Shown here in pieces: positions 14,690 to 57,059 of a stretch of DNA of 64,000 nt. Below the pieces are notes generated by a model. It saw only the letters and a program-made list of their open reading frames with translations, was not told the origin of the DNA and made no database searches. Source of the stretch: an uncultured delta proteobacterium (lineage in GTDB: Bacteria > Desulfobacterota > Binatia > Binatales > Binataceae); assembly GCA_963832395.1 (NCBI GenBank), contig CAWHTV010000003.1, positions 199,323 to 263,322 of the forward strand, in the 5' to 3' direction. The stretch's first letter is position 1. The number at the start of each line of letters is the position of its first letter. Both the position numbers and the translations under genes were made by a program.

Positions 14690-15682
14690 ATGACTGCAGG
14701 CGCGCATGATCTTTCCGCCCCCTGGACGCTCGCGAACTACCTGGACAATTCCACGCGCGCCGATCGGCTTACGGGCGGTGTGCGACGCATCCCGATCACG
14801 ACGCCGCGTGGCATATTCAAGGTCTGGACCAAGCGCGTCGGCAACAATCCGCGCATCAAACTGTTGTTGTTGCACGGCGGCCCTGGTTGCACGCACGAGT
14901 ACTTCGAAGCGTGCGACTCCTATCTTCCCGCCGCGGGCATCGAATACTACTACTATGATCAGTTGGGCTCCTATTACAGCGACCAGCCCGATTTTGACGA
15001 TCTGTGGGAACTGCCACGCTTCGTCGACGAGGTTGAACAGGTTCGCCTGGCACTCGGCCTGGACGCCTCCAATTTCTTTCTGCTCGGCCATTCATGGGGC
15101 GGAGTACTCGCCATCGAGTACGCGCTGCACTACCAGCAGCACCTGAAGGGATTGGTGATCTCGAATATGATGGCGAGTTTCCAGGCCTACAACGCATACG
15201 CCGAGCGGGTGCTCATGCCCACCATGGATCCGGCGGCGCTTACGGAGATCAAGCAGTTTGAGGCGGCCAAGGATTACACGAACCCGCGTTATATGGAATT
15301 GCTGATGCAGCACCACTACATTCACCACGTGCTGCGCTTGCCGCTCGGCGAGTGGCCGGATCCGGTCGAGCGGACCTTCAAACACCTCAATTCAAAAGTC
15401 TACATCCCGATGCAGGGCCCGAGTGAGCTCGGGGCCAGCGGCAAGCTGATGCAATGGGACCGGACCGCTGAACTGCGTCATATCGGCGTTCCGAGTCTGA
15501 CTATCGGGGCGCGCCATGACACGATGGATCCGTCCCATATGGAAGCGATGGCTCGCAGCCTGCCGCATGGCCGCTATCTGGACTGTCCCGACGGCAGCCA
15601 CATGGCGATGTACGATGATCAGCAAAGGTACTTTGCTGGCCTGATCGGCTTTCTCCAAGATGTCGATCGCCAGCGGTCGTAA
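14690..15682 (+). CDS. proline iminopeptidase-family alpha/beta hydrolase
   Basis: ATG at 14690 follows GAGGA. Motifs are LLLLHGGPGCTHEYF, the nucleophile elbow LLGHSWGG, and C-terminal GARHDTMDP...DGSHMAMYDD. This is the typical prolyl aminopeptidase (tricorn F1-like) pattern. Confidence 0.85.
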   Translation: MTAGAHDLSAPWTLANYLDNSTRADRLTGGVRRIPITTPRGIFKVWTKRVGNNPRIKLLLLHGGPGCTHEYFEACDSYLPAAGIEYYYYDQLGSYYSDQPDFDDLWELPRFVDEVEQVRLALGLDASNFFLLGHSWGGVLAIEYALHYQQHLKGLVISNMMASFQAYNAYAERVLMPTMDPAALTEIKQFEAAKDYTNPRYMELLMQHHYIHHVLRLPLGEWPDPVERTFKHLNSKVYIPMQGPSELGASGKLMQWDRTAELRHIGVPSLTIGARHDTMDPSHMEAMARSLPHGRYLDCPDGSHMAMYDDQQRYFAGLIGFLQDVDRQRS

Positions 15683-17077
15683 GCCCGTGCCCTCCGATCA
15701 GCGAGCCCGGACTCGCGGCACAAGCGCCCGATCCCAGTTCTCGCCTGGAGCAGTTTGGCTACCAGGAGCAGTTACATCGCACGCTCACCACTCGGGATCT
15801 GGTCGTCTACGGCATGATCTTTATGGTGCCCATCGCGCCATATTCCGTATTCGGTTTCGTCTGGAATGATTCCAGGGGCATGGTCCCGCTCGCCTATTTG
15901 GTCGGCCTCATCGGCATGTTCTTCACTGCCCTGAGTTACGCCGCGATGTCGCGTGCGTTTCCGCTGGCCGGCTCGGTATACACATACGCACAACGGGGCT
16001 TGCATGATCTCGCTGGCTTCTTCTCCGGCTGGCTGATTCTGCTCGACTACATTCTTGTACCGGCGCTCTTGTACATCTTCAGTGCCATTGCTCTGCGGGG
16101 GCTGCTCCCAGTCATGCCCGAATGGGCGTGGCTCCTGGGATTCATCGGCTTCAACGCCGTCGTGAACCTGCTCGGAATCCAGTTCACGGCGCGGGTCAAT
16201 TGGTACATGCTGCTGATGGAACTGATTACTCTGACTCTGTTTGTCGCCTTTGGGCTCGCCGCGCTTTACCACGGTCGCGGCGCCGGTGGGCTGACCCTCA
16301 GGCCGATTTACAACCCGAGTGTATTTTCATTGGCCACGGTGGTCGGCGCCACGTCGATCGCGGTGCTGTCGTTTCTCGGTTTTGACGGGATTTCCACGCT
16401 GTCCGAAGAGAGCCGCGGCGGTCAGGGCGCGGTAGCCCGCGCCACGTTGCTGTCGCTCGCACTGATCGGCGGGCTATTTATTCTGCAGACCTGGATCGCC
16501 ACCGACTTGGCGCAAGGCATGCGGTTCTCTTCGCCAGCGACGGCGTTTTACGAGATTTCGGAGCGCGCTGGGGGAGCCTGGCTGCGCCTGAGTCACGATC
16601 GGCGCGGTGGCTGTCGCCTCGGGGATCGCCAACGCCCTGGTCGCGCAGGCCGCCGTAGCGCGCATCCTTTTCGCGATGGCCCGCGATGGCAAGTTGCCCG
16701 CGGTGTTGGCCAAGATTCATCCCCGCTATAAGACCCCGTACGTCAGCACGTTGGTCGTCGCCGGGGTGTCATTGATGGTCGGTCTGTTCTTCTCCGAGCG
16801 CGTGGATGATCTGACCCGGATAGTCAATTTCGGTGCGCTCACCAGTTTCCTGCTGCTCCATCTTTCGGTGATCAACCACTACTTTGTTCGCCAACGCAGT
16901 GGCGCGTGGTTACGCCACCTGATCTTGCCGATGGCAGGATTCACGGTTATTGCCTACGTTCTCTACGAAATGGACAACGCCGCGAAGGTTCTGGGAGCGT
17001 GCTGGATTGCAATCGGCGCGCTTTACTATCTCATCCTGTCTTACGTCCTGAAGAAACCGGTCGCGCTTGAGGTCTGA
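15660..17077 (+). pseudogene. APC-family amino acid/polyamine permease (PuuP-like), reading frame broken twice
   Basis: Three consecutive frames carry the gene. The ATG at 15660 gives MSIASGRKPV.... The next frame gives ...SSRLEQFGYQEQLHRTLTTRDLVVYGMIFMVPIAPYSVFG...AGGAWLRL (no start codon of its own upstream of 15814). The third frame, from about 16590, gives VTIGAVAVASGIANALVAQAAVARILFAMARDGKLP... and runs to 17077. Each break is consistent with a single-nucleotide insertion. Confidence 0.75.
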
Positions 17078-17995
17078 ACGAATCAGGCAACAACCGCAAC
17101 TGCCGATATCAATCGGAAAAACGCGATATGGCGCGAGCGCCTCGACTGCGCGATCATCAAGCGCGCCAGAGGCGTCAGATTGCAGCGGCTGAATACAAAC
17201 ATGAGTCGCGCCGGCGGCAAAGTGCTCCGATATCCGGTCGTGGATTTTGCTCTCCGATCCCCACGCCACGATCGCGTCAACGAGGCGGTCGCTGCCCCCC
17301 TCGGCGAGATCGGTATCTGTGAACCCCAGCGATTTAAGATTTTTCGTGTAGTTGGGCAGCGACAAATAAAAGCTCATGTATTGCCTGGCAGCCTGCCGCG
17401 CCCTGGCCTTATCGCTCTCGAGAACCACCGCCTGCTCAACGCAAATCCATGCCAGCGGACCCATTTCGGCTCTCGCTCTGGCCGTGTGTGAAGGCGGAAC
17501 AAAGTAGGTGTGGGTGCCTTTGGTCTCGGCGGCGGCAAGCTGGATCATCCGGGGATGGAGTGCGGCGATGACAATCGGAACTTCTTCCCGCGGCGCAACC
17601 GCGTTGTAAACCGCGCTTTTCAGACCTGCCACATAGTTCTTCATGTGGGTGAAGGGCTTGCTGTAGTCGTGCCCGCGAAGATCGACTACCAGCGGCTTGT
17701 GACTGACACCCAGTCCGAGCACGAAGCGGCCGCCTGCCAACTCGGCCACCGTCTTTGCGCAGGACATCATGGTCAGCGTGTCGCGCGACCAGATGTTGGC
17801 GATGCCGGTGGCGAGCGCGATGCGCTCGGTATGGCTCAGCAGATAAGCCGCGTGGCTGAAAGGGTCGCGGCCCCAGGCCTCGGGAATCCAAAATGCGCCA
17901 TAGCCGAGCCGTTCCAGCTTGGCGGCCAGCCGTAGAGTCTCGGCCGCGGGCATCTTATCGCAAATCGCCCACAGCCCCAGTTTTCCGATATTCAT
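16910..17995 (-). CDS. LLM-class (luciferase-like) F420/flavin-dependent oxidoreductase; 3' end uncertain
   Basis: The internal ATG at 17995 gives MNIGKLGLWAICDKMPAAETLRLAAKLERLGYGAFWIPEAWGRDPF...GLGVSHKPLV..., an LLM family pattern. After ...DDRAVEALAP the ORF runs about 60 further codons across the 3' end of the convergent permease gene. The alternative frame stops within 6 codons, so a terminal indel is possible. Confidence 0.75.
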   Translation of the reverse strand: MNIGKLGLWAICDKMPAAETLRLAAKLERLGYGAFWIPEAWGRDPFSHAAYLLSHTERIALATGIANIWSRDTLTMMSCAKTVAELAGGRFVLGLGVSHKPLVVDLRGHDYSKPFTHMKNYVAGLKSAVYNAVAPREEVPIVIAALHPRMIQLAAAETKGTHTYFVPPSHTARARAEMGPLAWICVEQAVVLESDKARARQAARQYMSFYLSLPNYTKNLKSLGFTDTDLAEGGSDRLVDAIVAWGSESKIHDRISEHFAAGATHVCIQPLQSDASGALDDRAVEALAPYRVFPIDIGSCGCCLIRSDLKRDRFLQDVRQDEIVKRADCNPARSQNLRGVVHFVENVGNNRESCHRQDQVA

Positions 17996-18107
17996 CGGGA
18001 TTTCCTTTTTACGCTCCGATTCCAACTCGCCTTGTAGACCCAAACGGCCTCCCTGGCAAGGTTCGGCGCGCGAACGCGGTGAGCGTACGTTGGGTGCGGA
18101 GCGGGTC

Positions 18108-18936
18108 TCACAGCCGAAGGCAGGCTTCGGCCGCGAGATGAAAAAGCCGCTCACGCACCGCGTGACGGTTCCATCCCCGCGGAGCCCATCGCCGGCCGGC
18201 GAGGCTGTCGCCGCCATACAGGATTTGCGCGAACTCGACGCGGCGGAAGCGCGCGACGGCGAAAAACGCCGCCGCCTCCATCTCGACCACGACACATCCT
18301 TCATTCTGCCGCCGCGTCATCCGCGGTCGCGTCTCGCGATACACCGCGTCGGTGGTCCAGGTCTTACCGCGGACGTAATCGTGATTGTTCTCGCGCAGTA
18401 CCGCCTCGATCGCCTTAAGCGCGCGCCGCGTGGGGGTGACCTCGCGCGCCGGCGGCAGATAGTGATACGAGGTGCCCTTCGTCGCGAATCGCGGCGGTCG
18501 GGACAACGATATGCCCGACGTCGATGGATCCGACGAGGACTCCGGCGCCGCCGCAGGCGACGAACTTGCGGCATCCGAGCGCTATCATGTGCTCCAGGCG
18601 CGCCGCCGCGTTGGGAGCGCCGACTCCGGGATGAACGACGGCGAGCCGCCGGCCTCCATAGTCCAGCTCGTAGACCGGGTAGTCGCCCGCTTCGCTCTCG
18701 CCATTGTGGACGTGGCGCGCCTGGGCACCCTCTCGAACGAGCTCCCTGATCACCTCCTGGAAGAAGCACAGAACGCAGTGCTCGGCGACGTCGATGGGTT
18801 TGATAATGCGGCTTGGTTCGATGATCGCGACGCGCGCGGAGTCGCGCTCGAGCAGCGGAACGTTCGATCCAGCCGCTGCGCGAGACGGCCGCACCAGCCG
18901 CGGAACCCCAGGGACTTTCGTTTTCCCTATTCGCAT
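18108..18936 (-). pseudogene. nucleoside phosphorylase (PNP/UDP family), one frame break
   Basis: The N-terminal ORF reads ...RLAVVHPGVGAPNAAARLEHMIALGCRKFVACGGAGVL...HIVVPTAAIRDEG. The C-terminal ORF in another frame reads GTSYHYLPPAREV...GKTWTTDAVYRET...EGCVVVEMEAAAFFAVA. They join at about 18480 if one C is removed (GAAGGG-C-ACCTCG). Confidence 0.7.
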
Positions 18937-19104
18937 GTTTGGAATGGTTTTTCCTCCACTTGACGTGTCCCCAAAATGCCCGGCCTTTGGCGTGATAGTA
19001 GTTCCAGAAAGTTTCTCGCGGAAACTCGTCGCTGGCGGGCAAGTCTGCTATCAGTGACACAGAGCCGCGATTCAAATTGCGCATGGGCGCCAGCGGAGTG
19101 TGAC

Positions 19105-19578
19105 ATGAATTCGATCCCTGCCGAATTCCGAGCCGACGAGGCAGCATTGGTGATCATCGACACCCAGGAAAAATGGGTGCCGATGATACCCAACCGGCAC
19201 ACGCTGGTTGCCAACATGCGGACCCTGCTCAAGCTGGCGCGTTGCTTCGAAATGCCGATCGTGGTGGCGGAGCATCTGCCGTGGGTGATCGGCGAGACGG
19301 TCAACGAGTTGCGCGAGCTCCTGGATTCCACGACCCCGGTCATCAAAAAGACGGTTTACAATACCTTCGACGATCCGTGGAACACCGTCGCCTTCGAAGG
19401 GCTGCGCCATATCGAGTTGCACGACGGCATTCCGGCCAACGCGAGATCGCAGGGAGTAAGCGATATCTGGCTCGCGGCGCTGCCTCACGTGCTCAATCAG
19501 TTCGCCTATCAGGCCGACAAAGACCCCGCCCGCCAGAACGTGCCGCAGGCGTCACCCGCGCGGCGGCGTAGCGCTTAG
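19105..19578 (+). CDS. isochorismatase-family (cysteine hydrolase) protein, probably degenerate C-terminal half
   Basis: The ATG at 19105 gives MNSIPAEFRADEAALVIIDTQEKW...MPIVVAEH...VIKKTVYNTFDD, a typical isochorismatase-like N-terminal half. I cannot recognise the catalytic Cys segment (usually G..T..CV..TA) after residue about 100 in any frame. Confidence 0.5.
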   Translation: MNSIPAEFRADEAALVIIDTQEKWVPMIPNRHTLVANMRTLLKLARCFEMPIVVAEHLPWVIGETVNELRELLDSTTPVIKKTVYNTFDDPWNTVAFEGLRHIELHDGIPANARSQGVSDIWLAALPHVLNQFAYQADKDPARQNVPQASPARRRSA

Positions 19579-19613
19579 CCCAGGGCCCGCCGCAAGCGAT
19601 AGGACGCAAGCTG

Positions 19614-20141
19614 ATGGCGACCGACCATCCAGACGATCGTAAGCCAGTGCGTAAGCCATTGCGTAAAGCATCGCGTAAACCATCGCACAAACCGCCGCCG
19701 CCGAGCGGCACCGGTCACCTCCGCACGGTCCATCACGAAGGCTACGACCCCGGCATCAACTCTCTGTTCGTACCGGCGATCAAGGTCGAGGCAGGCAAGC
19801 TGGTGTTCATCTCGGGCGTGACCTGCGCACCGGTCTATCATCAGCATCCGCATCGAACGGAAGACTTCGACACGATGCCTCGCGATGCGGCGGGACAAGC
19901 CGCAATCGCCTACCGCCACCTTGGGCAGGCGCTCGAGGCCGCGGGCTGCAAACCCTCGCACGTGGTCTCGCTCACCCGCTTCATGACCAACCTGGCCGGG
20001 GATCAGGACGCTATCAACCGCGTCCAGGGCGAGTTCTTCAACGGCCATCTACCTACCAGCACCACGGTGGAGGTAAACCGGATGGCTACCGATCCGCGTA
20101 TCCGCCTGGAGATCCAGGCCATCGCGGTGGCTCCGCCCTGA
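19614..20141 (+). CDS. RidA/YjgF/L-PSP family protein with basic Pro/Lys/Arg-rich N-terminal extension
   Basis: The core reads ...AIKVEAGKLVFISGVTC...AAIAYRHLGQALEAAGCKPSHVVSLTRFMTNL...TSTTVEVNRMATDPRIRLEIQAIA, matching the RidA fold family. The first about 30 residues are DRKPVRKPLRKASRKPSHKPPPP. Confidence 0.8.
   Translation: MATDHPDDRKPVRKPLRKASRKPSHKPPPPSGTGHLRTVHHEGYDPGINSLFVPAIKVEAGKLVFISGVTCAPVYHQHPHRTEDFDTMPRDAAGQAAIAYRHLGQALEAAGCKPSHVVSLTRFMTNLAGDQDAINRVQGEFFNGHLPTSTTVEVNRMATDPRIRLEIQAIAVAPP
19638..19697 (+). repeat. five tandem imperfect 12-bp repeats inside the RidA-like gene
   Basis: CGTAAGCCAGTG / CGTAAGCCATTG / CGTAAAGCATCG / CGTAAACCATCG / CACAAACCGCCG. The repeats are in frame and encode (R/H)KPx tetrapeptides. 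Confidence 0.8.
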
Positions 20142-20172
20142 CAGGAACCCCTTCGCCGGCGGCCCTTCAACC

Positions 20173-20812
20173 TCAGTAGCGCGTGGCCAGATTGAACCAG
20201 CCGAGCCCTGGCAGGCGAGCGATAGTCGAATCCAGTTCGAAGAGCCGCAGCCGGGCCGATTCATTGGGATATAGGTAATTTTGCAAACGTCGAGTCGCGG
20301 CTTCGCCGCGAACAGGCATACCGACCGGCGTCCAGAGATACTTGATGATGGCCGTCGTGAGCACTTGAGCGGCTCGCGGGCGCAGACGAGCTTTGGCTTG
20401 ATTGAAGTAGAATGAGAAGTGTCGGCGCTCATCCTTGATGATCTGATTGAGAATCGTTCCAAGCAGCGGGATGTTGCGTACGTTCCGCAAGCGCGCGGTA
20501 GGATTCGACGCCCACCATCTCGTTGATCGCGCCCCACGTCATCTGCACGGCGGGGAGGTGGCGCGTCATCCGCGACAATAGCCTTGCGCCTATTTGGGCC
20601 ATGCGATCGGCAGGTGTTTGCCGCCTCAGATCGGCGAAACGCTGGTCGTCGACTGTGACGCCCTGACTTGTCAGAAATTGCTTCAATACCTCGGAATGAA
20701 AGAACTCCTCGTAGTTCCAACAGGAGAGAAACGCGGTGATGGAAGGATCTTGGACAACGTTCGTGGACAAAAGCTCGCGCAGGTAAACTATCGTGTGCGC
20801 CTCGATGTCCAT
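20173..20812 (-). pseudogene. acyl-ACP-desaturase-like di-iron (ferritin-like) protein remnant: 5'-truncated and frame-broken
   Basis: There are two ORF pieces. The first is ...CWNYEEFFHSEVLKQFL...WGAINEMVGVESYRALAERT. The second is NIPLLGTILNQIIKDERRHFSFYFNQA.... The ExxH-type ligand motifs (EEFFH, DERRH) and spacing resemble soluble desaturase-type di-iron proteins. The gene begins abruptly at 20812, 9 nt from the IS3 fragment, with roughly the first 80-100 codons missing. Confidence 0.5.
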
Positions 20813-20820
20813 CCGCGATT

Positions 20821-21802
20821 GATCTGAAGTCGCTGCACGCGAAGATCGGCGAGCTGACGCTGGAGAATGATTTTTTGGGCGGAGCGCTCAGCAAGGCCGG
20901 TTTGCTGAGCGCAAAGCGATGATCGACCGTCAACACACACTGTCGATCAGCAAACCGGCGAAGGCCCTGAAGATCAGCCGTGGCAGTGTGTATTATCTGC
21001 CCCGACCGGTTTCCGCAGCCGACCTCGCCGTGATGCGCCGGATGGATGAGTTGCATCTTGACTTGCCCTTCGCGGGCAGTCGGATGCTGCGCGATCTCCT
21101 GAACGCGGAAGGGGTCGTCATCGGTCGTCAGCACGTGGCTACGTTGATGAAGCGCATGGGGGTCAAGGCAATTTATCGCAAGCCCAACACCTCGAAGCCG
21201 GCACCGGGACACAAGATTTACCCCTATCTTCTGCGCAACGTGCCGGTCATCAGGCCCAACCAGGTCTGGGCGATGGATCTCACCTACATCCCCATGGCGC
21301 GAGGCTTTGTCTATCTCGCGGCCGTCGTCGACTGGTTCAGCCGCCGGGTCCTCGCTTGGCGATTGTCGGTCACGATGGAAGCCGAGTTCTGCATCGAAGC
21401 ACTGGAGGAAGCTCTGGCCCGCCACGGCAAACCGCACATTTTCAATACCGATCAAGGCAGCCAATTCACCAGCACCAGCTTCACCGACGTTCTGCTCCAA
21501 GCCGGCATCGCCATCAGCATGGACGGCAAAGGATCGTGGCGGGATAATGTTTTCGTCGAGCGCCTTTGGCGATCAGTCAAATACGCGGAGGTTTATCTGA
21601 AGGCTTACGAAAGTGTCGCCGAGGCCCGCAGCGCAATCGGCGGTTACTTCGGATTTTACAATACCCGCAGACCTCATTCGAGCCTTCAACGGCGAACGCC
21701 GGATCAGGCTTACTTCAACTGGCTACCGCAGATCGCGGCGGCCTGAACCAGGCAGATGTTCCACTTATCAACCCGACACTCCTGTTCAGACAAACCCAGC
21801 CA
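20821..21802 (+). mobile_element. IS3-family insertion sequence, 5'-truncated (left end and most of orfA missing)
   Basis: 20821-20922 encodes only the last 33 codons of an IS3-type OrfA (DLKSLHAKIGELTLENDFLGGALSKAGLLSAKR*). An ATGA overlap leads into a complete OrfB. The probable right end is near 21802 (...AAACCCAGCCA), after which G+C drops by eye. Confidence 0.75.
20919..21746 (+). CDS. IS3 family transposase OrfB (DDE integrase domain)
   Basis: 275-aa ORF: MIDRQHTLSISKPAKALKISRGSVYYLP...NQVWAMDLTYIPMARGFVYLAAVVDWFSRRVLAWRLS...FNTDQGSQFTS...MDGKGSWRDNVFVERLWRSVKYAEVY...YNTRRPHSSL. This is the canonical rve-type DDE pattern. Confidence 0.92.
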   Translation: MIDRQHTLSISKPAKALKISRGSVYYLPRPVSAADLAVMRRMDELHLDLPFAGSRMLRDLLNAEGVVIGRQHVATLMKRMGVKAIYRKPNTSKPAPGHKIYPYLLRNVPVIRPNQVWAMDLTYIPMARGFVYLAAVVDWFSRRVLAWRLSVTMEAEFCIEALEEALARHGKPHIFNTDQGSQFTSTSFTDVLLQAGIAISMDGKGSWRDNVFVERLWRSVKYAEVYLKAYESVAEARSAIGGYFGFYNTRRPHSSLQRRTPDQAYFNWLPQIAAA

Positions 21803-21819
21803 GCTCTGTTTGTCACCTA

Positions 21820-22152
21820 ATGCGAGTTCTGCAAATCGGCCTCGAAGTCCTTGCCCAATCGTTGAAAGTACCTTTTGAGTACAAAGATTGGGGAAATGTG
21901 ATCAATGACATTGAAGGCGCGATAAAGAAGATCGAGAAAGGATCGAACAAGACCGAAAATTGGCGCGAAAACCAGACTTTTTATTCCGAATGCGCAACTC
22001 AGTTCCAGCACTTCAAGGATGCCTGGCGCAATCACGCGATGCATGGACGAGGATTCTACGATGAGGCGAAGGCGCGAATGATTTATATAAGCGTACGAGA
22101 GTTCATGCGCATGATGGCGTTACGCTTTCCGATATTGGCGACGACACAGTAG
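21820..22152 (+). CDS. hypothetical 110-aa all-helical protein with HEPN-like Rx4H motif
   Basis: ATG at 21820 lies just past the IS3 end, in a stretch that looks lower in G+C. The sequence is MRVLQIGLEVLAQSL...FQHFKDAWRNHAMHGRGFYDEAKARMIYISVREFMRMMA, with RNHAMH (22027-22044) at the position expected for a HEPN active-site motif. I recognise no other family. Confidence 0.4.
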   Translation: MRVLQIGLEVLAQSLKVPFEYKDWGNVINDIEGAIKKIEKGSNKTENWRENQTFYSECATQFQHFKDAWRNHAMHGRGFYDEAKARMIYISVREFMRMMALRFPILATTQ

Positions 22153-22338
22153 CCGCAAGGAAGGCGTGAATCTAGAGAGGTGAAACGAGATCAGGAATCA
22201 ATATTGTAGCCGCTGCCAATTGGCGTGTAAGCAGGATTGTATTGTTGCCGGTCAATATGCAATGCGCGTAGTTCCAGAATGTAGGAGCATGCTCGGGCAA
22301 TGTCCGTTCCGCTGTTGGAATTGAGTAGCGGCAACATA

Positions 22339-23755: not shown

Positions 23756-24045
23756 AGACTACCAATACGGAAATTCGGCTTAGGTGTCTGAAAAAGGGTA
23801 TCGCGTGGCCCACGCGTCAGTGACGCGAGATCAAGGGAAGGTTCGGGATCTGGGTCGCCATTAAGCCGATAGACGGTGCCATTAGGCCGGCCGGTTTTTG
23901 TATCAATGCCGACTGGGGGAATGCGTTTATACAGAATATCGTCAAGTCCGATGACTACGTTCCTGACTAAAAGTCTTCGCGAACAACTCCAGCACAGCAG
24001 ACTGATCCAACTCCATAGCCTCATCACTTGCTTTAGACGGGTCAT
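23756..24045 (-). pseudogene. orphan ORF truncated by the IS256 insertion
   Basis: The reading frame ...VIGLDDILYKRIPPVGIDTKTGRPNGTVYRLNGDPDPEPSLDLASLTRGPRDTLFQTPKPNFRIGS runs directly into the IS256 terminal repeat at 23755. It has no convincing start of its own downstream of the stop of the preceding ORF (23942), so it may be a frame-shifted continuation of that ORF. Confidence 0.3.
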
Positions 24046-24472: not shown

Positions 24473-24477
24473 GATGT

Positions 24478-41301: not shown

Positions 41302-43054
<1,753 letters not shown>

Positions 43055-43059
43055 TCTCC

Positions 43060-45678: not shown

Positions 45679-45684
45679 CGGTCT

Positions 45685-46368: not shown

Positions 46369-46415
46369 GTCCAGCCTGGAAGCGGAAAGTCCGAGTACGC
46401 GGGCTACTTGTTCGC

Positions 46416-47546: not shown

Positions 47547-47639
47547 CCCCCAAAGAGGCGCCTGCGCTACATCAAGAGGTAGAGGGCTCTTCGCCCGCCG
47601 CCTGAGCCCCTCGGGTTACCAGCCATAGGCGCGGGAGCA

Positions 47640-48501: not shown

Positions 48502-51500
48502 CTCCGTCGTGCCACCACAACTGAGTAATGCTCTGGAGGAAGGAGCCGTAATGGATACCGTTTTCGCTCAGTCTCGCGTAATAGTCCTGTCCAGAGATCT
48601 TTTCCAGACATCGAGCCTGGATCTCCGCGAGCGTCTCCTGCCCTGCCGCAAAGACGCTGCCGTCTTCTTGGGAAGAAACTCCGCCCGTCGCATGCAGCGT
48701 CCATGATTTAGCGGGTTGGCCGATTCCCGCAGGGCAACTGTAGATTTGAAAAGCCGCCGCTCCATCCGTTCCGGAAGAGAGGATCAACTGAAGCAGGCGG
48801 GTTTCGTCGTCGGGCAAGAAAAGCGCCCGGTGAAATTCGATATCCTTCAGCACGAAGGATTGTGCCAGTGCGAAGGATTGTGCGCCGAAGGCCTCCGCCG
48901 CGGCCGCCAAGGCCATCTCCACGTAGGCCGAGGCGGGCAGCACCGCAACTCCTTCAATACGATGGTCATTCAGATAACGGCAGCGCGCGCTTGTCGAGCG
49001 TGACTTCCCAGAAGATGGGTTTCCGCAGGATGTGCCGATTTGAAATGCCGGCCCAGCAGCGGATGGTGCTCTTTCGTGCTGCGCGCTTTCCCCGAGCGCA
49101 TCCCCGCGCGTATCCGATAGATAGTCGGTTTCATCTGCCGCACTGTCCATCCAGCAGCGCTCTCGCCGCCAGGGATGCGACGGAAGCCGGACGCAGCGGC
49201 CTCCGGCCGGGTAAACAAGACTCCAGTCCACTGGGTATCCCAGGGTATAAAGCGCGCCGAGGGATCCAAGCATCACCGTGCGTTCTTCTTCATCACGCCG
49301 CATCGACGCCACCACCGCGCCTTCATGGCCGAGGTGATGAAGTCCCTGCTGGATGCCACTTAGAAGAATGGGATGCGGACTGATTTCAAGAAAAATGTCA
49401 TGTCCATCTTCCAGCAAGCGTTGAACCGCCGGTGAAAACAGCACCGGCTCTCTGAGGTTTCTCGCCCAATAGCGCGCTTCGAACTCGAGCCCACCGCTGA
49501 CCATACCGGTCACGGTCGAGTAAATGGGTATCGATGCGGGTCGCGGCTCCAGACCTTCCAGGGCCTGCAACAAATCCGCGCGTAGGGGATCCATCTGCGG
49601 GCTGTGCGAAGCGAAATCCACTTTCACCATGCCGCAGAAGATGTCTCGACGCCGCAATTGATCGAGGATTGTTTCCAGCGCCGCCGGATCTCCCGACAAC
49701 ACGGTGGAGGTGGGACTGTTGCTGGCCGCGATCGATACGCGATCTTCGTAGCCGGAGCCGGCGAGAACGCCGCGCGCCTGTTCCATGGAAAGCTCGACCG
49801 CGGCCATCGCGCCCTGTCCGACTGCGCGCCTGACCAGGCGGCTGCGATGACAAATAACCCGCGCCGCATCTTCGAGGCTCAGCGCACCGGCGACGTGCGC
49901 CGCCGCGACTTCGCCCATGCTGTGGCCGACCACGGCCTGTGGCTCGATACCCCAGGAACGCCACAAGGCCGCCAGGGCGACCTGAATCGCAAACAGGGCC
50001 GGCTGAACGATATCGACTTCGTTCAGCCGGGACTGAGCCGCATCGGTTGCCGTGAGCTCGCCGAGCAAAGACCAATCTCCGTACCGCCGCATCGCCCGGT
50101 CACAGCGTTCCACGACCTCGCGAAAAACCGGTTCCTGCTCCAGGAGGCTTCGCCCCATGCCAAACCATTGGGATCCTTGTCCCGGAAACACGAACACAAG
50201 TTTTCTTTGACGACCTGAATCCTTGCGGCCGAAAGACAGTCCGGGACGGGCCTCTCCGTGCAAAAACGCCTGGAGCCCTTCACTCAGTTGCTCGCGTGAA
50301 TAGCCTGTCACGGCGAGACGGTAGTCGTGATGATCACGCCGCATACCGGCCGTGTAACAAATGTCGTTTAGCGACAGTTCGGATTCCGGGGACGCCAGGA
50401 AATCCTGGTACGCTCGAGCAAGAGACTGGAGTGCCTCGGGGCTGCGCGCCGAAAGTGGCAGCAAGTGCGCGGACTTGGTATTGCGAATTTCGGCATGTGG
50501 ACTATCTATTGCGCATTCCGCACTCTGGATCCATGAATTGGACTGGGGGGCCTCTTCGAGAACCACATGAGCATTGGTTCCGCCAAAACCGAATGAGCTC
50601 ACCCCGGCCAGAGCGGGGCCCGACTCGACCGGCCATGGACCGAGCGTCGTCTGCACCCGCAGCGGGAGCCGATCGAAAGGAATGTGCGGATTGGGCTCCA
50701 CGAAGTGCAGGTTCGGCGGGATCTCGCGATGCTTGAGCGCGAGCGCCACCTTGATCAAGCCTGCAATGCCGGCTGCGGCCTCGAGATGGCCGATATTGGT
50801 CTTGACCGCGCCCAGGGCGCACGGTCTTCCCGGGGGACGGTCGAGGCCAAGCACCGCGCCCAGCGCCTTCACCTCGATCGGGTCGCCGAGCAAGGTGCCA
50901 GTGCCATGGGCTTCGACATATTGAACCCCGCCGGGCGAAACTCCAGCGCGCCGATAGGCTTCTCGCAGAACGGCTTCCTGGGCCAGCGGATTGGGAGCCA
51001 TCAGGCCGTTGCTGCGTCCGTCCTGATTCACCGCGCTGCCTCGCACGACGGCGTAAATCGGATCGGCGTCGGCCAAGGCTCTGGATAGCGGTTTCAGCAC
51101 GACGACACCGGCGCCTTCGCTGCGAACGTAGCCGTTGGCTCGGGCATCGAAGGCCTTGCAGCGGCCGTCGGGAGCCATGACCCCGGCCTTGGTAAAATTG
51201 ATGGTAATCGCGGGCGACAGGATCAGATTCACGCCGCCGGCAAGAGCGAGACTGGACTCTCCGTTCCAAAGACTGCGGCAGGCCAGATGAACCGCGACGA
51301 GTGACGAGGAACAGGCGGTGTCGATAGCCATGCTCGGCCCGCGAAAATCAAACAGGTAGGAAATACGATTGGCCGCGATACTCAGTGCGTTGCCGGTGCC
51401 CGCGTAGGCATCGATACGATGCGGATCGCCGAACTGAATCCGGCCATAGTCATTGTTCGAGATGCCGATGAATACACCGGCCCGGGTGCCGGCCAGACGC

Positions 51501-52240
51501 TCCGCCACCTGTCCAGCGTCTTGCAATGCTTCCCACGCCACCTCCAGCAACAGACGTTGCTGAGGATCCATACGCGCCGCTTCACGAGGAGAGATGCCGA
51601 AAAAATGAGGATCGAACCGATCGATCTGCTTGAGGAAGCCGCCCCAGCGGGTGTTCGTCTTGCCCGGAGCCGCGGGGTCCGGATCGTAAAAAGCGTCAAG
51701 CTTGAAGCGCTCCGCCGGAACCTCTGTGATCGCGTCCACTCCGTCCCGCAGCAGTTGCCAGAACGCTTGTGGATCATTGGCTCCGGGAAACCGGCAGCCG
51801 AGGCCGATGATCGCGATCGGCTCGCTGGTTGCTTCCCGCCCGCGGTCAGCCACGGCGCCCGACTGCGTGCCGCCGGAGTCCGAGGCATCCGCTGACCCCG
51901 CCAAATAACGGGCGAGCGTCTCGATGGTGGGGTACTCATAGGGGAGCGCGGGAGAAATTTGTCGCCCAAGCCGATCCGCCAGTTCGCCGGAAAGACCGAC
52001 CATCTCGCTTGAGCCGAGGCCATAACTGGCGAAGGGCTCGCGGACATCGATCTCGCGAGGCTCAAGCCCCAGCAACTCGGACAGCCGGGAGACCAACCAG
52101 GTTTGGATGACTTCAGCGGTCAGAGAATCCGTTGATGAGTTTGGCTGGTCGCGTTTGTCTCGATCGTCGAAACTCCGTTCGACAGAGCCTCGTTCGACAG
52201 AACTTGGCGACGCGCCGTTGGTTGAATTCTCCGACATCAC
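48464..52240 (-). CDS. type I polyketide synthase: N-terminal carrier domain-KS-AT-DH (N-half); longest open piece of the megasynthase
   Basis: 1258-aa ORF. The carrier domain is FASYGLGSSEMVGL. The KS motifs are IDTACSSSLVAVHLA, YVEAHGTGTLLGDP and KTNIGHLEAAAGIAG. The AT motifs are VVGHSMGEVAAAHVAG and VKVDFASHSPQM. The DH motif is YLNDHRIEGVAVLPAS (HxxxGxxxxP). Around 48990-49080 the expected HPLLG segment is only readable in an alternate frame (HHPLLGRHFKSAHPAETH), so even this ORF hides a compensated double shift. Confidence 0.92.
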   Translation of the reverse strand: MMSENSTNGASPSSVERGSVERSFDDRDKRDQPNSSTDSLTAEVIQTWLVSRLSELLGLEPREIDVREPFASYGLGSSEMVGLSGELADRLGRQISPALPYEYPTIETLARYLAGSADASDSGGTQSGAVADRGREATSEPIAIIGLGCRFPGANDPQAFWQLLRDGVDAITEVPAERFKLDAFYDPDPAAPGKTNTRWGGFLKQIDRFDPHFFGISPREAARMDPQQRLLLEVAWEALQDAGQVAERLAGTRAGVFIGISNNDYGRIQFGDPHRIDAYAGTGNALSIAANRISYLFDFRGPSMAIDTACSSSLVAVHLACRSLWNGESSLALAGGVNLILSPAITINFTKAGVMAPDGRCKAFDARANGYVRSEGAGVVVLKPLSRALADADPIYAVVRGSAVNQDGRSNGLMAPNPLAQEAVLREAYRRAGVSPGGVQYVEAHGTGTLLGDPIEVKALGAVLGLDRPPGRPCALGAVKTNIGHLEAAAGIAGLIKVALALKHREIPPNLHFVEPNPHIPFDRLPLRVQTTLGPWPVESGPALAGVSSFGFGGTNAHVVLEEAPQSNSWIQSAECAIDSPHAEIRNTKSAHLLPLSARSPEALQSLARAYQDFLASPESELSLNDICYTAGMRRDHHDYRLAVTGYSREQLSEGLQAFLHGEARPGLSFGRKDSGRQRKLVFVFPGQGSQWFGMGRSLLEQEPVFREVVERCDRAMRRYGDWSLLGELTATDAAQSRLNEVDIVQPALFAIQVALAALWRSWGIEPQAVVGHSMGEVAAAHVAGALSLEDAARVICHRSRLVRRAVGQGAMAAVELSMEQARGVLAGSGYEDRVSIAASNSPTSTVLSGDPAALETILDQLRRRDIFCGMVKVDFASHSPQMDPLRADLLQALEGLEPRPASIPIYSTVTGMVSGGLEFEARYWARNLREPVLFSPAVQRLLEDGHDIFLEISPHPILLSGIQQGLHHLGHEGAVVASMRRDEEERTVMLGSLGALYTLGYPVDWSLVYPAGGRCVRLPSHPWRRERCWMDSAADETDYLSDTRGDALGESAQHERAPSAAGPAFQIGTSCGNPSSGKSRSTSARCRYLNDHRIEGVAVLPASAYVEMALAAAAEAFGAQSFALAQSFVLKDIEFHRALFLPDDETRLLQLILSSGTDGAAAFQIYSCPAGIGQPAKSWTLHATGGVSSQEDGSVFAAGQETLAEIQARCLEKISGQDYYARLSENGIHYGSFLQSITQLWWHDGDVLGEIRCSSMS

Positions 52241-52247
52241 GCACTTC

Positions 52248-54038
52248 TTACAGACTGGCGAGAGTGCCGTTCAGGAAGCTGACCTGGCACGCATTGCGCT
52301 GAACCTTGCCGCTTGGAGTCTTCGGCAGGCTCCCGGCCCTGAGCAGTACCGCCGCGTGCACCCGCACGTCGTGCTCTTCCGCCACCGCTCGCCGAATGGC
52401 TCGTACCATCGCCCCGACGTCCAGCAACAGCCGCGGAGGCGAGTGCGGGGGCCGATTGCGATCGTGGCTATCCGCCGGCCGGTAGCGGCGCTCAACCTCG
52501 GCTGCGACGATCAAACGTTCTTCGTGGGCGACGTCGACCGAAAACGCCGCGCAACAGCCCGACCGTATTGCGGGATGGCTTTGTTCCACCGTCAACTCGA
52601 TGTCGTTGGGGTAAAGGTTGCGGCCCCCGATGATGATCAGATCTTTCAGCCGGCCGGTGACAAACAATTCGCCATCTTTCAGAAATCCCAAATCTCCGGT
52701 GCGCAGAAATGGCCCTTCTCCGCTGTCCGCGAGGTAGGCTCGCAACGTGCGCTCTGTCTCCTCGGGGCGGTTCCAATAACCTCGCGAAACGGTCGGGCCT
52801 GATACCCAGATTTCGCCCACCGCCTCCGGTGCGCAACGAGTCAACGATTCGGGATGAACGATGACAATCCTGGTACCGGGCATCGCGTGGCCACATCCAA
52901 CCAGGGTCCGCACATTCTGTTGCTGGTCGGGAGCCTCCGCGACGCGATTCTGTTCAAGCGCCGCCGCCTGAGCCGCATACAAGGTAGGCTCATCTTTCAA
53001 AGGACCGCCTGACACCATGAGAGTGGCTTCGGCGAGTCCATAGCAGGGATACAGGAAGCGTGGGCGGAACCCGTATTTTGCAAAGGCCGCGGCAAACCGT
53101 TTCAGAGTGTCCGCCCGGACTGGCTCTGCGCCATTGTACGCCGCATACCAACCGCTGAGGTCGAGATTTTCGCACTGTTCGGGAGTAATTTTGCGGGCGC
53201 ACAGCTCGTAGGCGAAATTGGGACCTCCACTGACGGTGCCGTTGTATCGCGAAATTGCCTGAAGCCAACGCACCGGCCGCTGAAGGAAGGATTGTGGCGG
53301 CAAGATGAAACATGGACGTCCAACATAGGTCGGTTGAACGATTCCATTAGTAAGTCCCATATCATGAAAGACCGGCAGCCATGACACTGATACCCCACTG
53401 TCCGGAGTGAGCTCGAACGCGTGATTGACGTTGGCCGAATTATGCAGAAGGTTCCCGTGACTGACCATCACACCCCGGGGTACGGTGGTTGAGCCTGAGG
53501 TGTATTGGAGCAAGGCCAGACTGTTGCTGGTCACGACAGGATTTTGCCATCCCGGCGCCAGCCCGCCGGTGAGCTTGTCGGTGGCCACCCAGCGCATCGT
53601 CGCCAGTTCTTGAGCCTGCGTGAACAGGGCCTCAACCTTCGACAGGATCGATGACGTGGTGAGCGCCACCGACGGCTGAGCATCGTTCGCGATGGCTCGT
53701 AACCTGGGGAAAGTCCGCTGTTGCTGAGCCGCAGTCGGCGGGGGCACCGGGACGGCAATCACGCCGGCATACAGGCAACCGAAAAAGGCCGCGATGAATT
53801 CGAGACCGGTTGGATAGATCAGCAGCGCCCGCTGCCCACTTGCGCAGTAAGTCTGGAGCAGCGCCGCAATAGTCCGGGCCTCGCGGTCCAACTCCGCATA
53901 GGTCAGACGGCCTCCCTCTACCTCTCCATCGAGCAAATAGGCGTAGGCCAGCTGCTCAGGCTGACGAAGCGCTCGCCAGCGAAGGACCTCAACCAGCGTG
54001 GAAAAACTAACCGTTTCATCGGTAGAAGCTCTATTCAT
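52248..54038 (-). CDS. fatty acyl-AMP ligase (FAAL)
   Basis: 596-aa intact ORF with the typical FAAL N-terminus (TLVEVLRWRALRQPEQLAYAYLLDGEVEGGRLTYAELDREARTIAALL). Adenylate-forming motifs are LQYTSGSTTVPRGVMVSH, YGLAE, GEIWVSGPTVSRGYW, RTGDLGF and PKTPSGKVQR. Its stop is 7 nt before the PKS carrier-domain start. Confidence 0.9.
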   Translation of the reverse strand: MNRASTDETVSFSTLVEVLRWRALRQPEQLAYAYLLDGEVEGGRLTYAELDREARTIAALLQTYCASGQRALLIYPTGLEFIAAFFGCLYAGVIAVPVPPPTAAQQQRTFPRLRAIANDAQPSVALTTSSILSKVEALFTQAQELATMRWVATDKLTGGLAPGWQNPVVTSNSLALLQYTSGSTTVPRGVMVSHGNLLHNSANVNHAFELTPDSGVSVSWLPVFHDMGLTNGIVQPTYVGRPCFILPPQSFLQRPVRWLQAISRYNGTVSGGPNFAYELCARKITPEQCENLDLSGWYAAYNGAEPVRADTLKRFAAAFAKYGFRPRFLYPCYGLAEATLMVSGGPLKDEPTLYAAQAAALEQNRVAEAPDQQQNVRTLVGCGHAMPGTRIVIVHPESLTRCAPEAVGEIWVSGPTVSRGYWNRPEETERTLRAYLADSGEGPFLRTGDLGFLKDGELFVTGRLKDLIIIGGRNLYPNDIELTVEQSHPAIRSGCCAAFSVDVAHEERLIVAAEVERRYRPADSHDRNRPPHSPPRLLLDVGAMVRAIRRAVAEEHDVRVHAAVLLRAGSLPKTPSGKVQRNACQVSFLNGTLASL

Positions 54039-54493
54039 CTGTCAGACGCGGAAACACGCGGATCGAGCCGGGCCCAAACAGAGCTATGGTCGCATGTTCA
54101 CTTCCAGCGTTCACACAAGTGATATTCGCGACGGCGGCTACCGGTATCTGAACTTTTTGGGCCGCCAACTCCGCTGCGCGAAGAACAACCTCCTTGCTTT
54201 TGAACTCGGCTGCCGCGGATCTCTCCACGATTCTTGTGGACTTTGCGGTCAAACGCCGCGATAGAGCTCTCAGCCGAATCAACCGATGGGGGTTCGTATC
54301 ACGCGCTTTCTTTCGTATTTTCAATTCACACCGATCAACTCTTATGAGCTTACACCCGCTGAGGGCGAAGGCGGAAGTGCAATGTAACCGGCCAAAGTGA
54401 AATTATGTAACACAAAGAACAATAGGGACAACAGCCGGCTGAATCAAATTGCTCTCCAATTCATCTTGTCCCGGTCCAGGAGACTCGTCTTCG

Positions 54494-55791
54494 CTAAAGC
54501 ACTTTCAATGCGTCTGGCAGTTTGGTCCGCGCCGCTTTCAATGCCGGATAAAAGGAGATGACCGTCGCCATTATGAACACAATGATCACCGACGAAACGA
54601 TTCGCGCCACGCTCAGGCGGGAATAGAGAATCGGATCAACGACGAGTGCACGGGGAAGGCCAGTTCTGAATACCAGGCGCAAATCCAACCCGGCGGTGGC
54701 GAAATAATGCTCGACGCTCAAACCCAGCGCAAGTCCGAACGCGAGGCTGAGCGCCGTGAGCGCGAGCGATTCCCCGATGATCATCATTGCCAACTGCGCA
54801 GGCCGAAGGCCCAGAGCCTTACAGACGCCAAATTCATAGCGGCGTTCCAGAACCCGCATGAGAATGGTATTGAGTATTCCCAATCCGACCATCGCCAGTA
54901 CCACACCGTTCATGACGTAGTTGAAAGCGTGGTCCAGCCCAAGGATCTGCGCCAGCATCGGCATCGATTCCCGCCAGGTCAGAATTTCAACCGGAGCTCC
55001 CTCCAACCGCTTGCGCAAGCCCTTCGCCACCTTCAGTGAGTCGCCCTCGTGCCGAAGAAAGAGCGCAACCTGAGTCACCTGGTTGTCCGGTACTCCGAGC
55101 AGCGTCTGGGCGGCGGGCAAAGGCAGATGGATGACATCGGCATCCACCGTTTCGATGCCGGTGCGAAAGATCCCGTTCACCCGCAACAGAGTGCTTTGCA
55201 TTTCTCCGCCGGTTACGTCCTTGACCTTGGTTCCAGGCGTGTCGCACCGCCTGCGTCATGAGCACTACTTTGGAACCCGTCCTTCACCTCGAGCTTGCGG
55301 GCCAGGTCGGCGCCAATGACTATTCCGGTGGCGCTTGTCGTCACTGAGATATGTCCCCTGCGACTATCCGCTGAGGAATCAGGGACACGGCGCGCTCCTC
55401 TCGCGGTATGACCCCAATAATGGTCACGCTGGCGGAGTTGGCTGCGGAACTCAGCAGCCCGGTGGCCAGAAGCTGCGGACTCACGCCTAGCAGCGACCTG
55501 CTTCATGGATCGCGTTTGCAGGAACTCGTTGATCGTGGATACCACCCGGGCCGGAAGCAGTAGCTCCTGGGAGCCGGTATCTTGATACCCCTTGGCCTGG
55601 ATGACAACGTGCCCTGGGCCAAACCTCACTCCGTTGGCAATCGTCTGCTCGTGGCCACCGTCGAGCAGGCCCAAGGAGATCAGCAGCAAGGCGAGACCCA
55701 GACCCAGGGCCAGGGCAGTCAACAGGGTACCGCGGGGATTGCGCCAGACATTGCGCCAGCTGATTTTCACCAGAAGAAGAACGCTTGTCAC
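54494..55791 (-). pseudogene. FtsX/MacB-LolE-type ABC transporter permease, several frame breaks
   Basis: The N-terminus is MTSVLLLVKISWRNVWRNPRGTLLTALALGLGLALLL. The periplasmic domain pieces are in shifting frames (…GIVIGADLARKLEVKDG / VVLMTQA…). The C-terminal FtsX domain is intact (54494-55201: ...VLAMVGLGILNTILMRVLERRYEFGVCKALGLRPAQL...FYPALKAAR). Confidence 0.8.
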
Positions 55792-55793
55792 TG

Positions 55794-57059
55794 CTAGACC
55801 TTACGGATCGCTTCCGTTGGCCGAAAGTGAGCGGCCCGCCACGCCGGATAGAGCGCGGACACGAGCGCGGTGACGCCCAGCCCCACAGCCGCCTGGGCGT
55901 AGGCGGAAAAATCCTGCCGCCCGTACCAGAGATGGCCCACCACTACTCCGGCGACAGAGACGACCTCGCCCGTGGCGCCGCCCAGGTCCAGGCCATGAGC
56001 CTGCAGATACCACAGCAGCGGAGCGCCAATCGCTCCTCCCAAAACCAGACTGGCCGCGGCCAAACCCGCCGCCTCCGCCATGATCAGGCCAATCACCTGA
56101 ACCGGACGCATTCCCAGGGCCATCAGCATGCCCAGCTCACGGGTGCGCTCAAAGACCGCCATCAGCATGGTGTTCATGATGCCGATGACCGCCAACAGGA
56201 AAAAAATAAAAAAGAGCACAAACGTGACGCCGCGATTGAACTGCACGTAATCGGCCAGCTCCGGCGCCAGTTCCGGCCACGCACTCACCCGCACGGGAAG
56301 CGCTTTTACTCAGTCGAGCCTGAAGCGCCGAGGCCACCGTCGTAGCGTCGGTTATGTTGTACAGCTTGATGCCAACTTCATGGATCCTTGCCGGCGCCAG
56401 GTGCAAAAGCTCCTGTAGAGAGGAGAGCGGCATCAGCACCAGGTTCCGGTCCATGACATCAAGACCGGTGTGAAAAATCCCGCCAACCGTGTACAGGTCA
56501 TTGCCCATCGAGCCGTCGGCCGCCTGCGTCAGCAGAACGATTTCCGACCCTACCTCGACGCCAATTATGCTGGCGAGCTTGTCTCCCACCACGACCCTGT
56601 TTGGCATCAGCTTCGGTCAGATAGCCCCCTTTTACTATCTGCGTGTTCAGGACCGTAACCTTTGGTTCCTGGTCGGGCGCCACCCCCATAAGCGCAACCC
56701 CGGCGGAAGAGCCATGCGAAGCGCTTACCAGTCCGTAGCCGTACACCCGCGGAGCCGCGGCATAGACCCGGGGGTCGGCGGTGATGGCGGCAAGCAAGCG
56801 CGCCGACGTCCGTCCCTTTTCCCCCTCCCAAGGTCTTCTGAATGGAACGGCTGGGGTAGTAACCCGGGGCGTGCACCTGGATCTCGGAGAGAACCAGCCG
56901 CGTGCCGTTCTCAATCATCTGCCAGCGCAGGCCCGCCATCAGACACGCAACAAACAGCAGCATGGCATAGCCCAGAGCGATGGCGGCCATGGCGATGAAG
57001 GTACGCCGCGGATTGCGCCAGAGATTGCGCCACGCAAGCTGAAGCAGGCGTCCGCTCAT
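55794..57059 (-). pseudogene. FtsX/MacB-LolE-type ABC transporter permease (paralogue), several frame breaks
   Basis: The N-terminus is MSGRLLQLAWRNLWRNPRRTFIAMAAIALGYAMLLF (56607-57059). The periplasmic part is PNRVVVGDKLASIIGVEVGSEIVLLTQAADGSMGNDLYTVGGIFHTG (56149-56607). The FtsX domain is FFIFFLLAVIGIMNTMLMAVFERTRELGMLMALGMRPVQV...LYPAWRAA (55794-56294). Confidence 0.8.

Follow-up and report, generated by a model that had tools for sequence, protein, structure and literature searches.

Background

Whether a run of broken reading frames records the decay of genes in a living lineage, or faults in the assembly that reports them, is the question raised by this locus. The window analysed here is a stretch of 64,000 nucleotides (C3:199323-263322) from G000, a highly contiguous metagenome-assembled genome from an uncultured soil bacterium of the Binataceae group. 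G000 has 13 contigs, 4.49 Mb and an estimated completeness of 77%, whereas most genomes of the same genus, at 4.2-5.4 Mb, reach 92-96%. A sequence-only reading of the window had described frame breaks that are lacking in the first 15.6 kb and numerous afterwards, and had leaned towards long-read indel error with uneven polishing. Here we report that the breaks are very probably errors in the consensus of an assembly of uneven quality rather than mutations of the organism, so that the affected genes, the PKS-NRPS included, should not be read as dead.

Methods

Indels were called by nucleotide alignment to relatives with gap clustering, and a window-specific indel is a state found in none of the available relatives. 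G001, from the same genus, served as reference genome, and the PKS-NRPS comparison used four independent relatives, L001 (= G001), L004, L010 and L036. Independent population data came from Logan contigs of several soil and peat metagenome runs. These contigs derive from samples other than the source of G000 and strictly show that closely related strains, rather than the G000 strain itself, are intact.

Three other procedures were abandoned. Chaining of tblastn HSPs of the relatives' ORFs under-counted closely spaced shifts, and nucleotide alignment took its place. A frameshift detector built ab initio, a six-frame Viterbi model with G000 codon usage as its training data, recovered only about one fifth of the breaks, owing to weak codon bias across the PKS region. 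Polarising events by the longest ORF that spans them gave noisy calls, since at 63% GC antisense ORFs are long. Among candidate essential genes, rpoB, rpoC and secA were dropped as tests, being absent or cut by a contig end in G000; recA, which a codon tally had suggested was broken, gave a single tblastn segment with only compensated or C-terminal differences and was not used.

Results

Distribution of frame breaks over the window

No gene is broken in the first 15,660 nucleotides, by ORF list and frame plot, and about 78 frame-breaking indels fall between 15.7 and 57 kb, 53 of them in the 38.1-49.1 kb of the PKS-NRPS (Table 1). The later density predicts about 30 events for the first 15.6 kb and about 25 for 49.1-54.3 kb; both have zero, and the unevenness along the window is far beyond chance. 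Frame plot, ORF list, Pfam and alignments thus all bear out the contrast first described. Differences from G001 within 1-15660 are intergenic, lie at gene ends or leave the G000 ORF open, and over 10000-15660 the only indel relative to near-identical metagenome contigs is at intergenic position 11408.

Table 1. Stretches, genes and frame-breaking sites of the window
Feature	Position	Strand	Observation	Basis
Clean stretch	1-15660		13-14 contiguous genes, no frame-breaking indel	ORF list, frame plot
Lightly affected stretch	15700-19165		Window-specific sites 15701, 16592, 17117, 18477
+1 insertion	15701		Upstream of APC permease ORF
APC permease	ORF pieces 15814-16731 and 16607-17077	+	Break at 16592	Pfam
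Luciferase-like monooxygenase	16910-18304	-	Break at 17117
Gene	18107-19165	-	Break at 18477
IS element, rve-type transposase	20814-21808		Break-free; further copies partly partial	Pfam
IS element	22294-23717		Break-free; further copies full-length
Amidase and amidohydrolase	27546-30119	-	28023 (+1), 28095 (-1), 28767 (-1), 29057 (+1), 29086 (+1)
DSD1-like (Ala_racemase_N) gene	30945-32046	+	31123 (+1), 31763 (-1), 31914 (+1)
M24 peptidase	within 32897-35200	+	Break at 33794	Pfam
MBL hydrolase	within 32897-35200	-	Breaks at 34292, 34838, 35068 (-1)	Pfam
Densest patch	38112-49093	-	53 frame-breaking indels, 4.8 per kb, nearly all +1
Clean patch	49094-54343	-	5' half of PKS and FAAL; same megasynthase gene and operon
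FtsX-type permease genes	55213-57059	-	Eight +1: 55239, 55282, 55332, 55360, 55495, 56303, 56612, 56797

Pfam verified the splitting of the APC permease, amidase, amidohydrolase, DSD1-like gene, M24 peptidase and MBL hydrolase. The genes for the MFS protein, crotonase, PPTase, thioesterase II and FAAL are free of breaks within the affected region, as had been claimed, and the earlier assignment of the gene at 16910-18304 is corrected to a luciferase-like monooxygenase.

The densest patch spans the NRPS, a stand-alone C-domain gene and the 3' half of the PKS. That the PKS-NRPS is heavily broken holds, and the first count of more than 20 breaks in some 15 kb was too low: we find about 53 in 11 kb. 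Its open 3.8-kb ORF does conceal a compensated shift, made up of three mutually compensating +1 insertions (48978, 49015 and 49093) instead of the two supposed. Within the same PKS gene and operon, break density is 4.8 per kb as far as 49093 and 0 over the next 5.2 kb, and a step of this kind in mid-gene is not predicted by gene decay. Multi-base and complex differences were also observed around 44.0-46.0 kb and at gene ends.

Relatives and independent contigs

Comparison with orthologues, which had been proposed from the start, gave a uniform answer: window-specific frame changes were not seen in the relatives, which were unanimous (4/4, 8/8 and 6/6) in the three best-covered stretches. The extra bases of 38112-49093 are missing from all four relatives, and in G001 the orthologues of the three PKS-NRPS genes are intact ORFs of 2419, 549 and 2053 aa. 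All eight relatives contradict the window at the amidase and amidohydrolase sites, with contigs of other metagenomes agreeing with them, and six of six lack the inserted bases of the FtsX-type permease genes. Across the adjoining clean patch (49094-54343), four independent relatives, covering it at five loci, show no event.

At about 20 sites, contigs that are 96-99.7% identical and come from independent runs either have no extra base or carry the missing one, and none of them shows the window's indel there. Near-identical contigs are without the extra bases at every event site that they cross in 38112-49093, and metagenome contigs are gap-free over 49110-49500. In contigs of runs X4, X6 and X26 (98-100% identity) no extra base is present at 15700, 16590, 17117 and 18475. 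The sites 17117, 31123, 31763 (-1) and 31914 are additions to the list from metagenome contigs; those in the DSD1-like gene rest on contigs of X1, X2 and X5, 30945-32046 being outside the coverage of the relative genomes. One contig of 302 bp differs from the window by one mismatch and one gap, and contigs at least 99% identical in substitutions depart from it by 1-3 indels per 200-300 bp.

Among all the window-specific sites that near-identical contigs cross, only 19009 shows the window state. The +1 at this position relative to other species is also present in independent contigs (X4, X6 and X26) and so is a real population-level difference rather than one specific to the window. The contig test can therefore discriminate, because 19009 survives it.

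Indel spectrum and selection

Isolated one-nucleotide events comprise 233 insertions and 48 deletions (about 5:1), and 73% of the inserted bases differ from both neighbours, that is, they lie outside any homopolymer. The impression of mostly +1 changes not confined to long homopolymers was therefore sound. Inserted bases occur at the frequencies of the genome composition, and no common motif or homopolymer context was found at the break sites. The deletion-biased spectrum concentrated in repeats and homopolymers, as expected of genuine bacterial pseudogenes, was not seen in G000; the spectrum of these indels is not biological.

Once frames are corrected, the three PKS-NRPS genes contain no stop in 4,989 codons despite 52 breaks, in keeping with the near absence of nonsense changes noticed at first sight, and those with 10, 12 and 30 breaks have dN/dS of 0.20, 0.125 and 0.17. 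The hallmarks of pseudogenes, nonsense codons beside frameshifts and dN/dS moving towards 1, are thus absent from them. Weighted dN/dS is 0.126 for break-free genes and 0.169 where genes carry 3 or more breaks per kb, and stops number 0.2-0.6 per 1000 codons across break-density classes. Selection on the frame-corrected genes is still in force: the dN/dS comparison suggested beforehand returned 0.13-0.20 for the PKS-NRPS genes, as in intact genes, and points to sequencing error.

We considered whether two strain alleles had both been written into the consensus. This was ruled out, as mismatches to G001 are not enriched beside insertions (0.07-0.09, against 0.13 nearby). Substitutions found only in G000 at sites invariant in the relatives run at 33.7 per kb in the dirty patch and 27.9 per kb in the comparison (z about 1.6, not significant), an absence of significant excess that sits less easily with error.

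Genome-wide pattern

The window is not exceptional within G000, and breaks occur across the genome. Comparison of 298 genes (113,924 codons) with G001 yielded 588 frame-breaking indels inside ORFs open in G001, affecting 200 genes; of the events polarised in 401 kb, 344 break G000 alone and 54 break G001 alone. G001 and G003 also have breaks, at a low rate. Density in G000 averages about 1 per kb and reaches 4-5 per kb in dirty patches of roughly 1.5-20 kb, separated by clean ones of comparable size. The clumping is on the scale of read lengths: counted in bins of 2 kb, the breaks have a dispersion index of 4.5 and leave 56 bins empty where 15.7 are expected, and adjacent bins correlate at 0.38. 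There is a weak positive correlation between break density and divergence from G001 (rho 0.25).

One essential gene is also broken. valS, single-copy in G000 (C7:388.9-391.4 kb), bears seven +1 insertions within 1.6 kb, whereas its counterparts in G001 and G002 are intact ORFs of 896-897 aa. ileS and gyrA are unbroken, and no break was seen over 27 kb of the ribosomal-protein and elongation-factor operon. Both IS elements of the window have several more copies elsewhere in G000 at 99-100% identity, and several IS families have 4-7 identical copies each.

Discussion

Watson and Warr are said to have reported in 2019 that residual indel errors of long-read assemblies truncate predicted proteins. 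The window resembles such assemblies in that single-base indels break conserved ORFs, producing apparent pseudogenes and lowered completeness, in that relatives and short-read-derived contigs have intact frames, and in that the effect is tied to consensus support. It differs from the residual errors typical of Nanopore data, which are deletions in homopolymers, as G000 has mostly insertions and avoids homopolymers; this excess is unlike the textbook profile and is an observation against error. Its errors are also sharply patchy (0 versus 4-5 per kb), unlike those of typical long-read assemblies. The Microflora Danica paper on long-read MAGs describes lower-coverage MAGs with reduced coding density (PMC12313526).

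Indel spectrum, absence of stops, normal dN/dS, relatives, contigs, valS and genome-wide patchiness together uphold the initial leaning towards long-read indel error with uneven polishing. We suggest that the dirty patches would be places where very few reads, or reads that agreed poorly, supported the consensus, whether because a low-abundance strain had little local depth or because the sequence varies among strains. Conserved sequence, of which the ribosomal-protein operon is an example, and multi-copy IS elements may be clean through greater read support. Positions 1-15660 are one clean patch, and 38.1-49.1 kb is among the dirtiest.

Mass pseudogenisation with IS expansion characterises reductive evolution of the Mycobacterium leprae, M. 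ulcerans, Shigella and Bordetella pertussis types. A genuine and recent decay of this sort, of an accessory island and other non-essential genes amid IS expansion and genome reduction, is very improbable here, although parts of the picture invite it. As in those genomes, frame-broken and mostly accessory genes stand beside identical multi-copy IS elements, in families of 4-7 copies that are also typical of IS-driven decay, while core translation genes are intact; unbroken ribosomal genes, ileS and gyrA alongside broken accessory genes would be expected under real decay too. The weak rise of break density with divergence and the one real frame-changing difference from other species, at 19009, point the same way. 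Unlike those genomes, however, G000 lacks nonsense codons and deletion bias, has normal dN/dS and an essential tRNA ligase that is broken, and has break densities unrelated to gene borders. Two thirds of its sampled genes are affected, yet dN/dS stays at about 0.13-0.17 with stops nearly absent; the largely non-homopolymer insertion excess is the reverse of the known bacterial indel bias; density falls to 0 inside a single gene; and sister strains at 99% identity or more are without its breaks. The insertions might instead be real and so recent, a patchy burst of non-templated single-base additions in the living lineage, that substitutions and stops have had no time to follow. This would call jointly for a source of insertions in tracts of 1.5-20 kb, such as a polymerase or repair process prone to them, and for survival through a second valS-like activity or read-through, and we regard it, whole and in its combined parts, as extremely improbable.

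A mixture, in which errors account for most breaks and a smaller share, perhaps 5-10%, consists of real lineage-specific frameshifts or changes at gene ends, together with real IS insertions and truncations, is unlikely but deserves more weight. The sharing of 19009 with independent contigs, the complex differences noted above, the low break rates of G001 and G003, and the IS copies, which are real repeats, are consistent with it. Against it, every other window-specific site crossed by near-identical contigs lacks the window state, and no site in a dense patch has positive evidence of being real. Biological read-through, whether it took the form of programmed ribosomal frameshifting, of transcript slippage or of an altered code, came into consideration solely on account of the strong conservation of the corrected frames; no supporting evidence was found. 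Breaks reach 5 per kb, no site is conserved in any relative, and in related genomes a single frame encodes each of these proteins. With the insertions absent from every relative and no sequence context, motif or homopolymer common to the sites, this explanation is effectively refuted.

The value of consensus error as the explanation is practical rather than biological, as a warning for the annotation of G000. About two thirds of sampled genes have at least one frame-breaking indel relative to their orthologue, which makes the completeness estimate unreliable, along with any call of a pseudogene, split gene, unusual overlap or odd domain order. The low completeness of G000 fits consensus error, but part of it reflects sequence that is truly missing: neither rpoB nor secA is present, and a contig end truncates rpoC. 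Other findings in G000 that depend on a single frame break or in-frame stop should be compared with relatives before they are believed. In the living organism the FAAL-PKS-NRPS cluster and the other broken genes are most probably intact, and we propose that the cluster be treated as such and read by frame-corrected comparison with relatives, for which G001 supplies ORFs of 2053, 549 and 2419 aa.

Frame breaks within the window

Here we report that the frame-breaking indels (breaks; net length not a multiple of three) of this window are very probably residual long-read indel errors in an unevenly polished assembly; their uneven distribution is not a biological feature. All available relatives were aligned to the window, indel clusters with a net length not a multiple of three were kept, and events supported by every relative covering the site were termed window-specific. 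With the four sites added by contigs of other metagenomes, the total is about 78, nearly all ±1 and most +1 (see table). Both the list of ORFs and a plot of GC by codon position show 13-14 contiguous genes at 1-15660 and frames that switch repeatedly downstream; the sequence-only reading had noted this division, which is confirmed and extended here. Its gene identities agree in outline with Pfam, for split genes (APC permease, amidase, amidohydrolase, Ala_racemase_N/DSD1-like, M24 peptidase, MBL hydrolase) and unbroken ones (MFS, crotonase, PPTase, thioesterase II, FAAL) alike. Its count of more than 20 breaks in the PKS-NRPS rises to 53, with support counted as four independent genomes because L001 is the same record as the same-genus genome G001. 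The compensated double shift that it saw in a 3.8-kb ORF is indeed compensated but not double: three +1 events (48978, 49015, 49093) cancel out.

Location of breaks, checked sites and mobile elements (window positions unless a contig of the source genome, G000, is named)
Feature	Position	Basis or type
Window-specific events	15701, 16592, 18477	alignment to relatives
Window-specific events	28023, 28095, 28767, 29057, 29086	8/8 relatives
Window-specific events	33794, 34292, 34838, 35068	alignment to relatives
Window-specific events, n=53	38112 to 49093	4 independent genomes
Window-specific events, n=8	55239 to 56797	6/6 relatives
Window-specific events	17117, 31123, 31763, 31914	contigs of other metagenomes
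Sites checked in other samples	15700, 16590, 17117, 18475, 38711, 44837, 45127, 45661	Logan contigs
Sites checked in other samples	45700, 47582, 47633, 47766, 48198, 48975, 49016, 49084	Logan contigs
IS element	20814-21808	rve-integrase type
IS element	22294-23717	no Pfam hit on strand scanned
IS element	25028-26017	IS1595-family transposase
Further dirty patches	C4:28-48 kb; C4:90 kb; C8:4-9 kb; C8:116-119 kb	

Sequencing error or genuine decay

Real decay would fit the abundance of IS elements and the heavier burden on accessory than on core genes, but it is opposed by the type of indel observed. Indels arising spontaneously in bacteria are biased towards deletions and cluster in homopolymers, whereas isolated one-base events in frames open in G001 comprised 233 insertions and 48 deletions; 73% of inserted bases were unlike both neighbours, only 2% lay in runs of four or more, and their composition (C 74, G 69, A 47, T 43) mirrors that of the genome. 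Decay also sits poorly with selection: the three PKS-NRPS genes (10, 12 and 30 breaks), once frame-corrected, are free of stops over 4,989 codons and have dN/dS values of 0.20, 0.125 and 0.17, respectively. Across all genes, weighted dN/dS was 0.126 without breaks versus 0.169 with at least three per kb, and stops numbered 0.2-0.6 per 1000 codons in every break-density class. Likewise, the only valS, an essential gene (C7:388.9-391.4 kb; matched piecewise by NCBIfam valS equivalog models), has seven +1 insertions when compared with the genomes G001 and G002, in each of which it is a single open frame of 896-897 aa. Nor do breaks respect gene borders: density falls from 4.8 per kb over the 53-event stretch to zero over the next 5.2 kb, still inside that PKS gene and its operon, against an expectation of about 25. 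The cluster is intact in G001 (ORFs of 2053, 549 and 2419 aa).

Independent data point the same way. Several unrelated runs from soil, peat and wetland, all of samples other than that of G000, yielded Logan contigs of a population with 96-100% identity to the window, and at every window-specific site crossed they lack the extra base or carry the missing one; contig gaps over 38112, ~41570 and 48481 follow this pattern. Many alignments end exactly at window-specific sites, and two contigs combine few mismatches with gaps (302 bp, one mismatch and one gap; 248 bp, two and three); coding DNA that diverged naturally would not be expected to show an indel-to-substitution ratio of at least 1. The sequence-only reading had noted mostly +1 events not confined to long homopolymers, had favoured error over decay on the near absence of nonsense changes, and had proposed dN/dS and orthologue comparisons; all of these now support error, the window-specific indels occurring in none of the covering relatives (four, eight of eight and six of six, by stretch).

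A small minority of the differences is probably genuine, for example 19009 and some multi-base changes at gene ends and around 44-46 kb. At 19009 the window is matched by four contigs, which come from two runs; therefore this difference from other species is real, and the contig test can go the other way. The event is +1 relative to two other species, lies in gene 18107-19165 (minus strand) and is common to independent metagenome contigs of this population; in this species the gene really has a differing N-terminal frame or else a differing start, an ATG at 19147.

A genome-wide mosaic

When 480 kb of G001, syntenic with G000 (88-92% nucleotide identity), was compared with G000, 588 frame-breaking differences (448 insertions and 140 deletions in G000) fell inside 298 G001 ORFs (113,924 codons), affecting 200 of the 298 genes. 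When events were assigned by which genome retains the open frame, 344 broke only G000 and 54 only G001 over 401 polarised kb. Bins of 2 kb averaged 2.3 events with a variance-to-mean ratio of 4.5, an excess of empty bins (56 versus 15.7 expected) and of bins with six or more (19 versus 5.2), and a correlation of 0.38 between neighbours. The window's clean 15.6 kb and dirty remainder are therefore one case of a general mosaic. Of the patches observed elsewhere in G000, the densest is a P450-reductase fusion with 25 breaks (C8:116004-119319); no break falls in the operon for ribosomal proteins and elongation factors (C9:262-288 kb). All annotation of G000, including the window's PKS-NRPS cluster, calls for caution.

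Patches span 1.5-20 kb, the scale of read length. The density of breaks shows a weak increase with divergence from G001 (rho 0.25) but none with GC content; insertions were not beside mismatches, and substitutions were not clearly raised in a dirty patch. Most simply, the quality of the consensus would have tracked how well reads supported each place: in an organism of low abundance, stretches that are strain-specific or variable would have few or discordant reads, and conserved or repeated stretches more, leaving the most conserved operon clean. Repeat sequence may have been called once from pooled, deeper reads, giving break-free, near-identical IS copies. The first two IS elements contain no breaks, and further copies, 99-100% identical and some partial, lie on contigs C1, C2, C3, C4, C6 and C7.

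Source genome and neighbouring features

The window is C3:199323-263322 of G000. This genome (4.49 Mb, 13 contigs, 63% GC) has an estimated completeness of 76.9% and contamination of 0.7%; most same-genus genomes of 4.2-5.4 Mb reach 92-96% completeness. A whole-genome search gave no match to rpoB or secA, and rpoC is truncated where contig C9 ends; besides being error-laden, the assembly therefore really is incomplete, and part of its deficit is sequence genuinely absent. Loci related to the window come nearly all from metagenome-assembled genomes labelled uncultured delta proteobacterium, Candidatus Binatia or Binataceae, many of them part of the long-read (Nanopore) catalogue of Microflora Danica (PMC12313526). 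The insertion-rich, non-homopolymer profile of G000 is unlike usual Nanopore residual errors. Other assemblies of the genus also contain breaks at lower rates: valS of G003, a further same-genus genome, is split into two frames of 621 and 388 aa (C2:514134-516727). The organism appears widespread, since many independent metagenomes of soil, peat, wetlands and bioreactors (runs X1-X31) contain, at low depth, a population 96-100% identical to G000.

Synteny between 12347-26164 and G001 (C6:29.6-42 kb) is patchy: about 7.5 kb of G001 (29.6-37.1 kb) maps to contig C8 of G000, and in its place the window has the genes for the permease and the monooxygenase together with IS elements. This pattern suggests that the region is variable, rearranged and rich in IS elements. 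The P450 fused to a flavodoxin/FAD reductase on C8, 1112 aa in G001, is BM3-like by eye. Within the PKS-NRPS cluster, 44340-44560 corresponds to the boundary between two separate G001 genes, a 549-aa stand-alone C-domain ORF (C6:9857-11503) and a 2419-aa NRPS (11522-18778); the "back-to-back C domains" there probably belong to two proteins.
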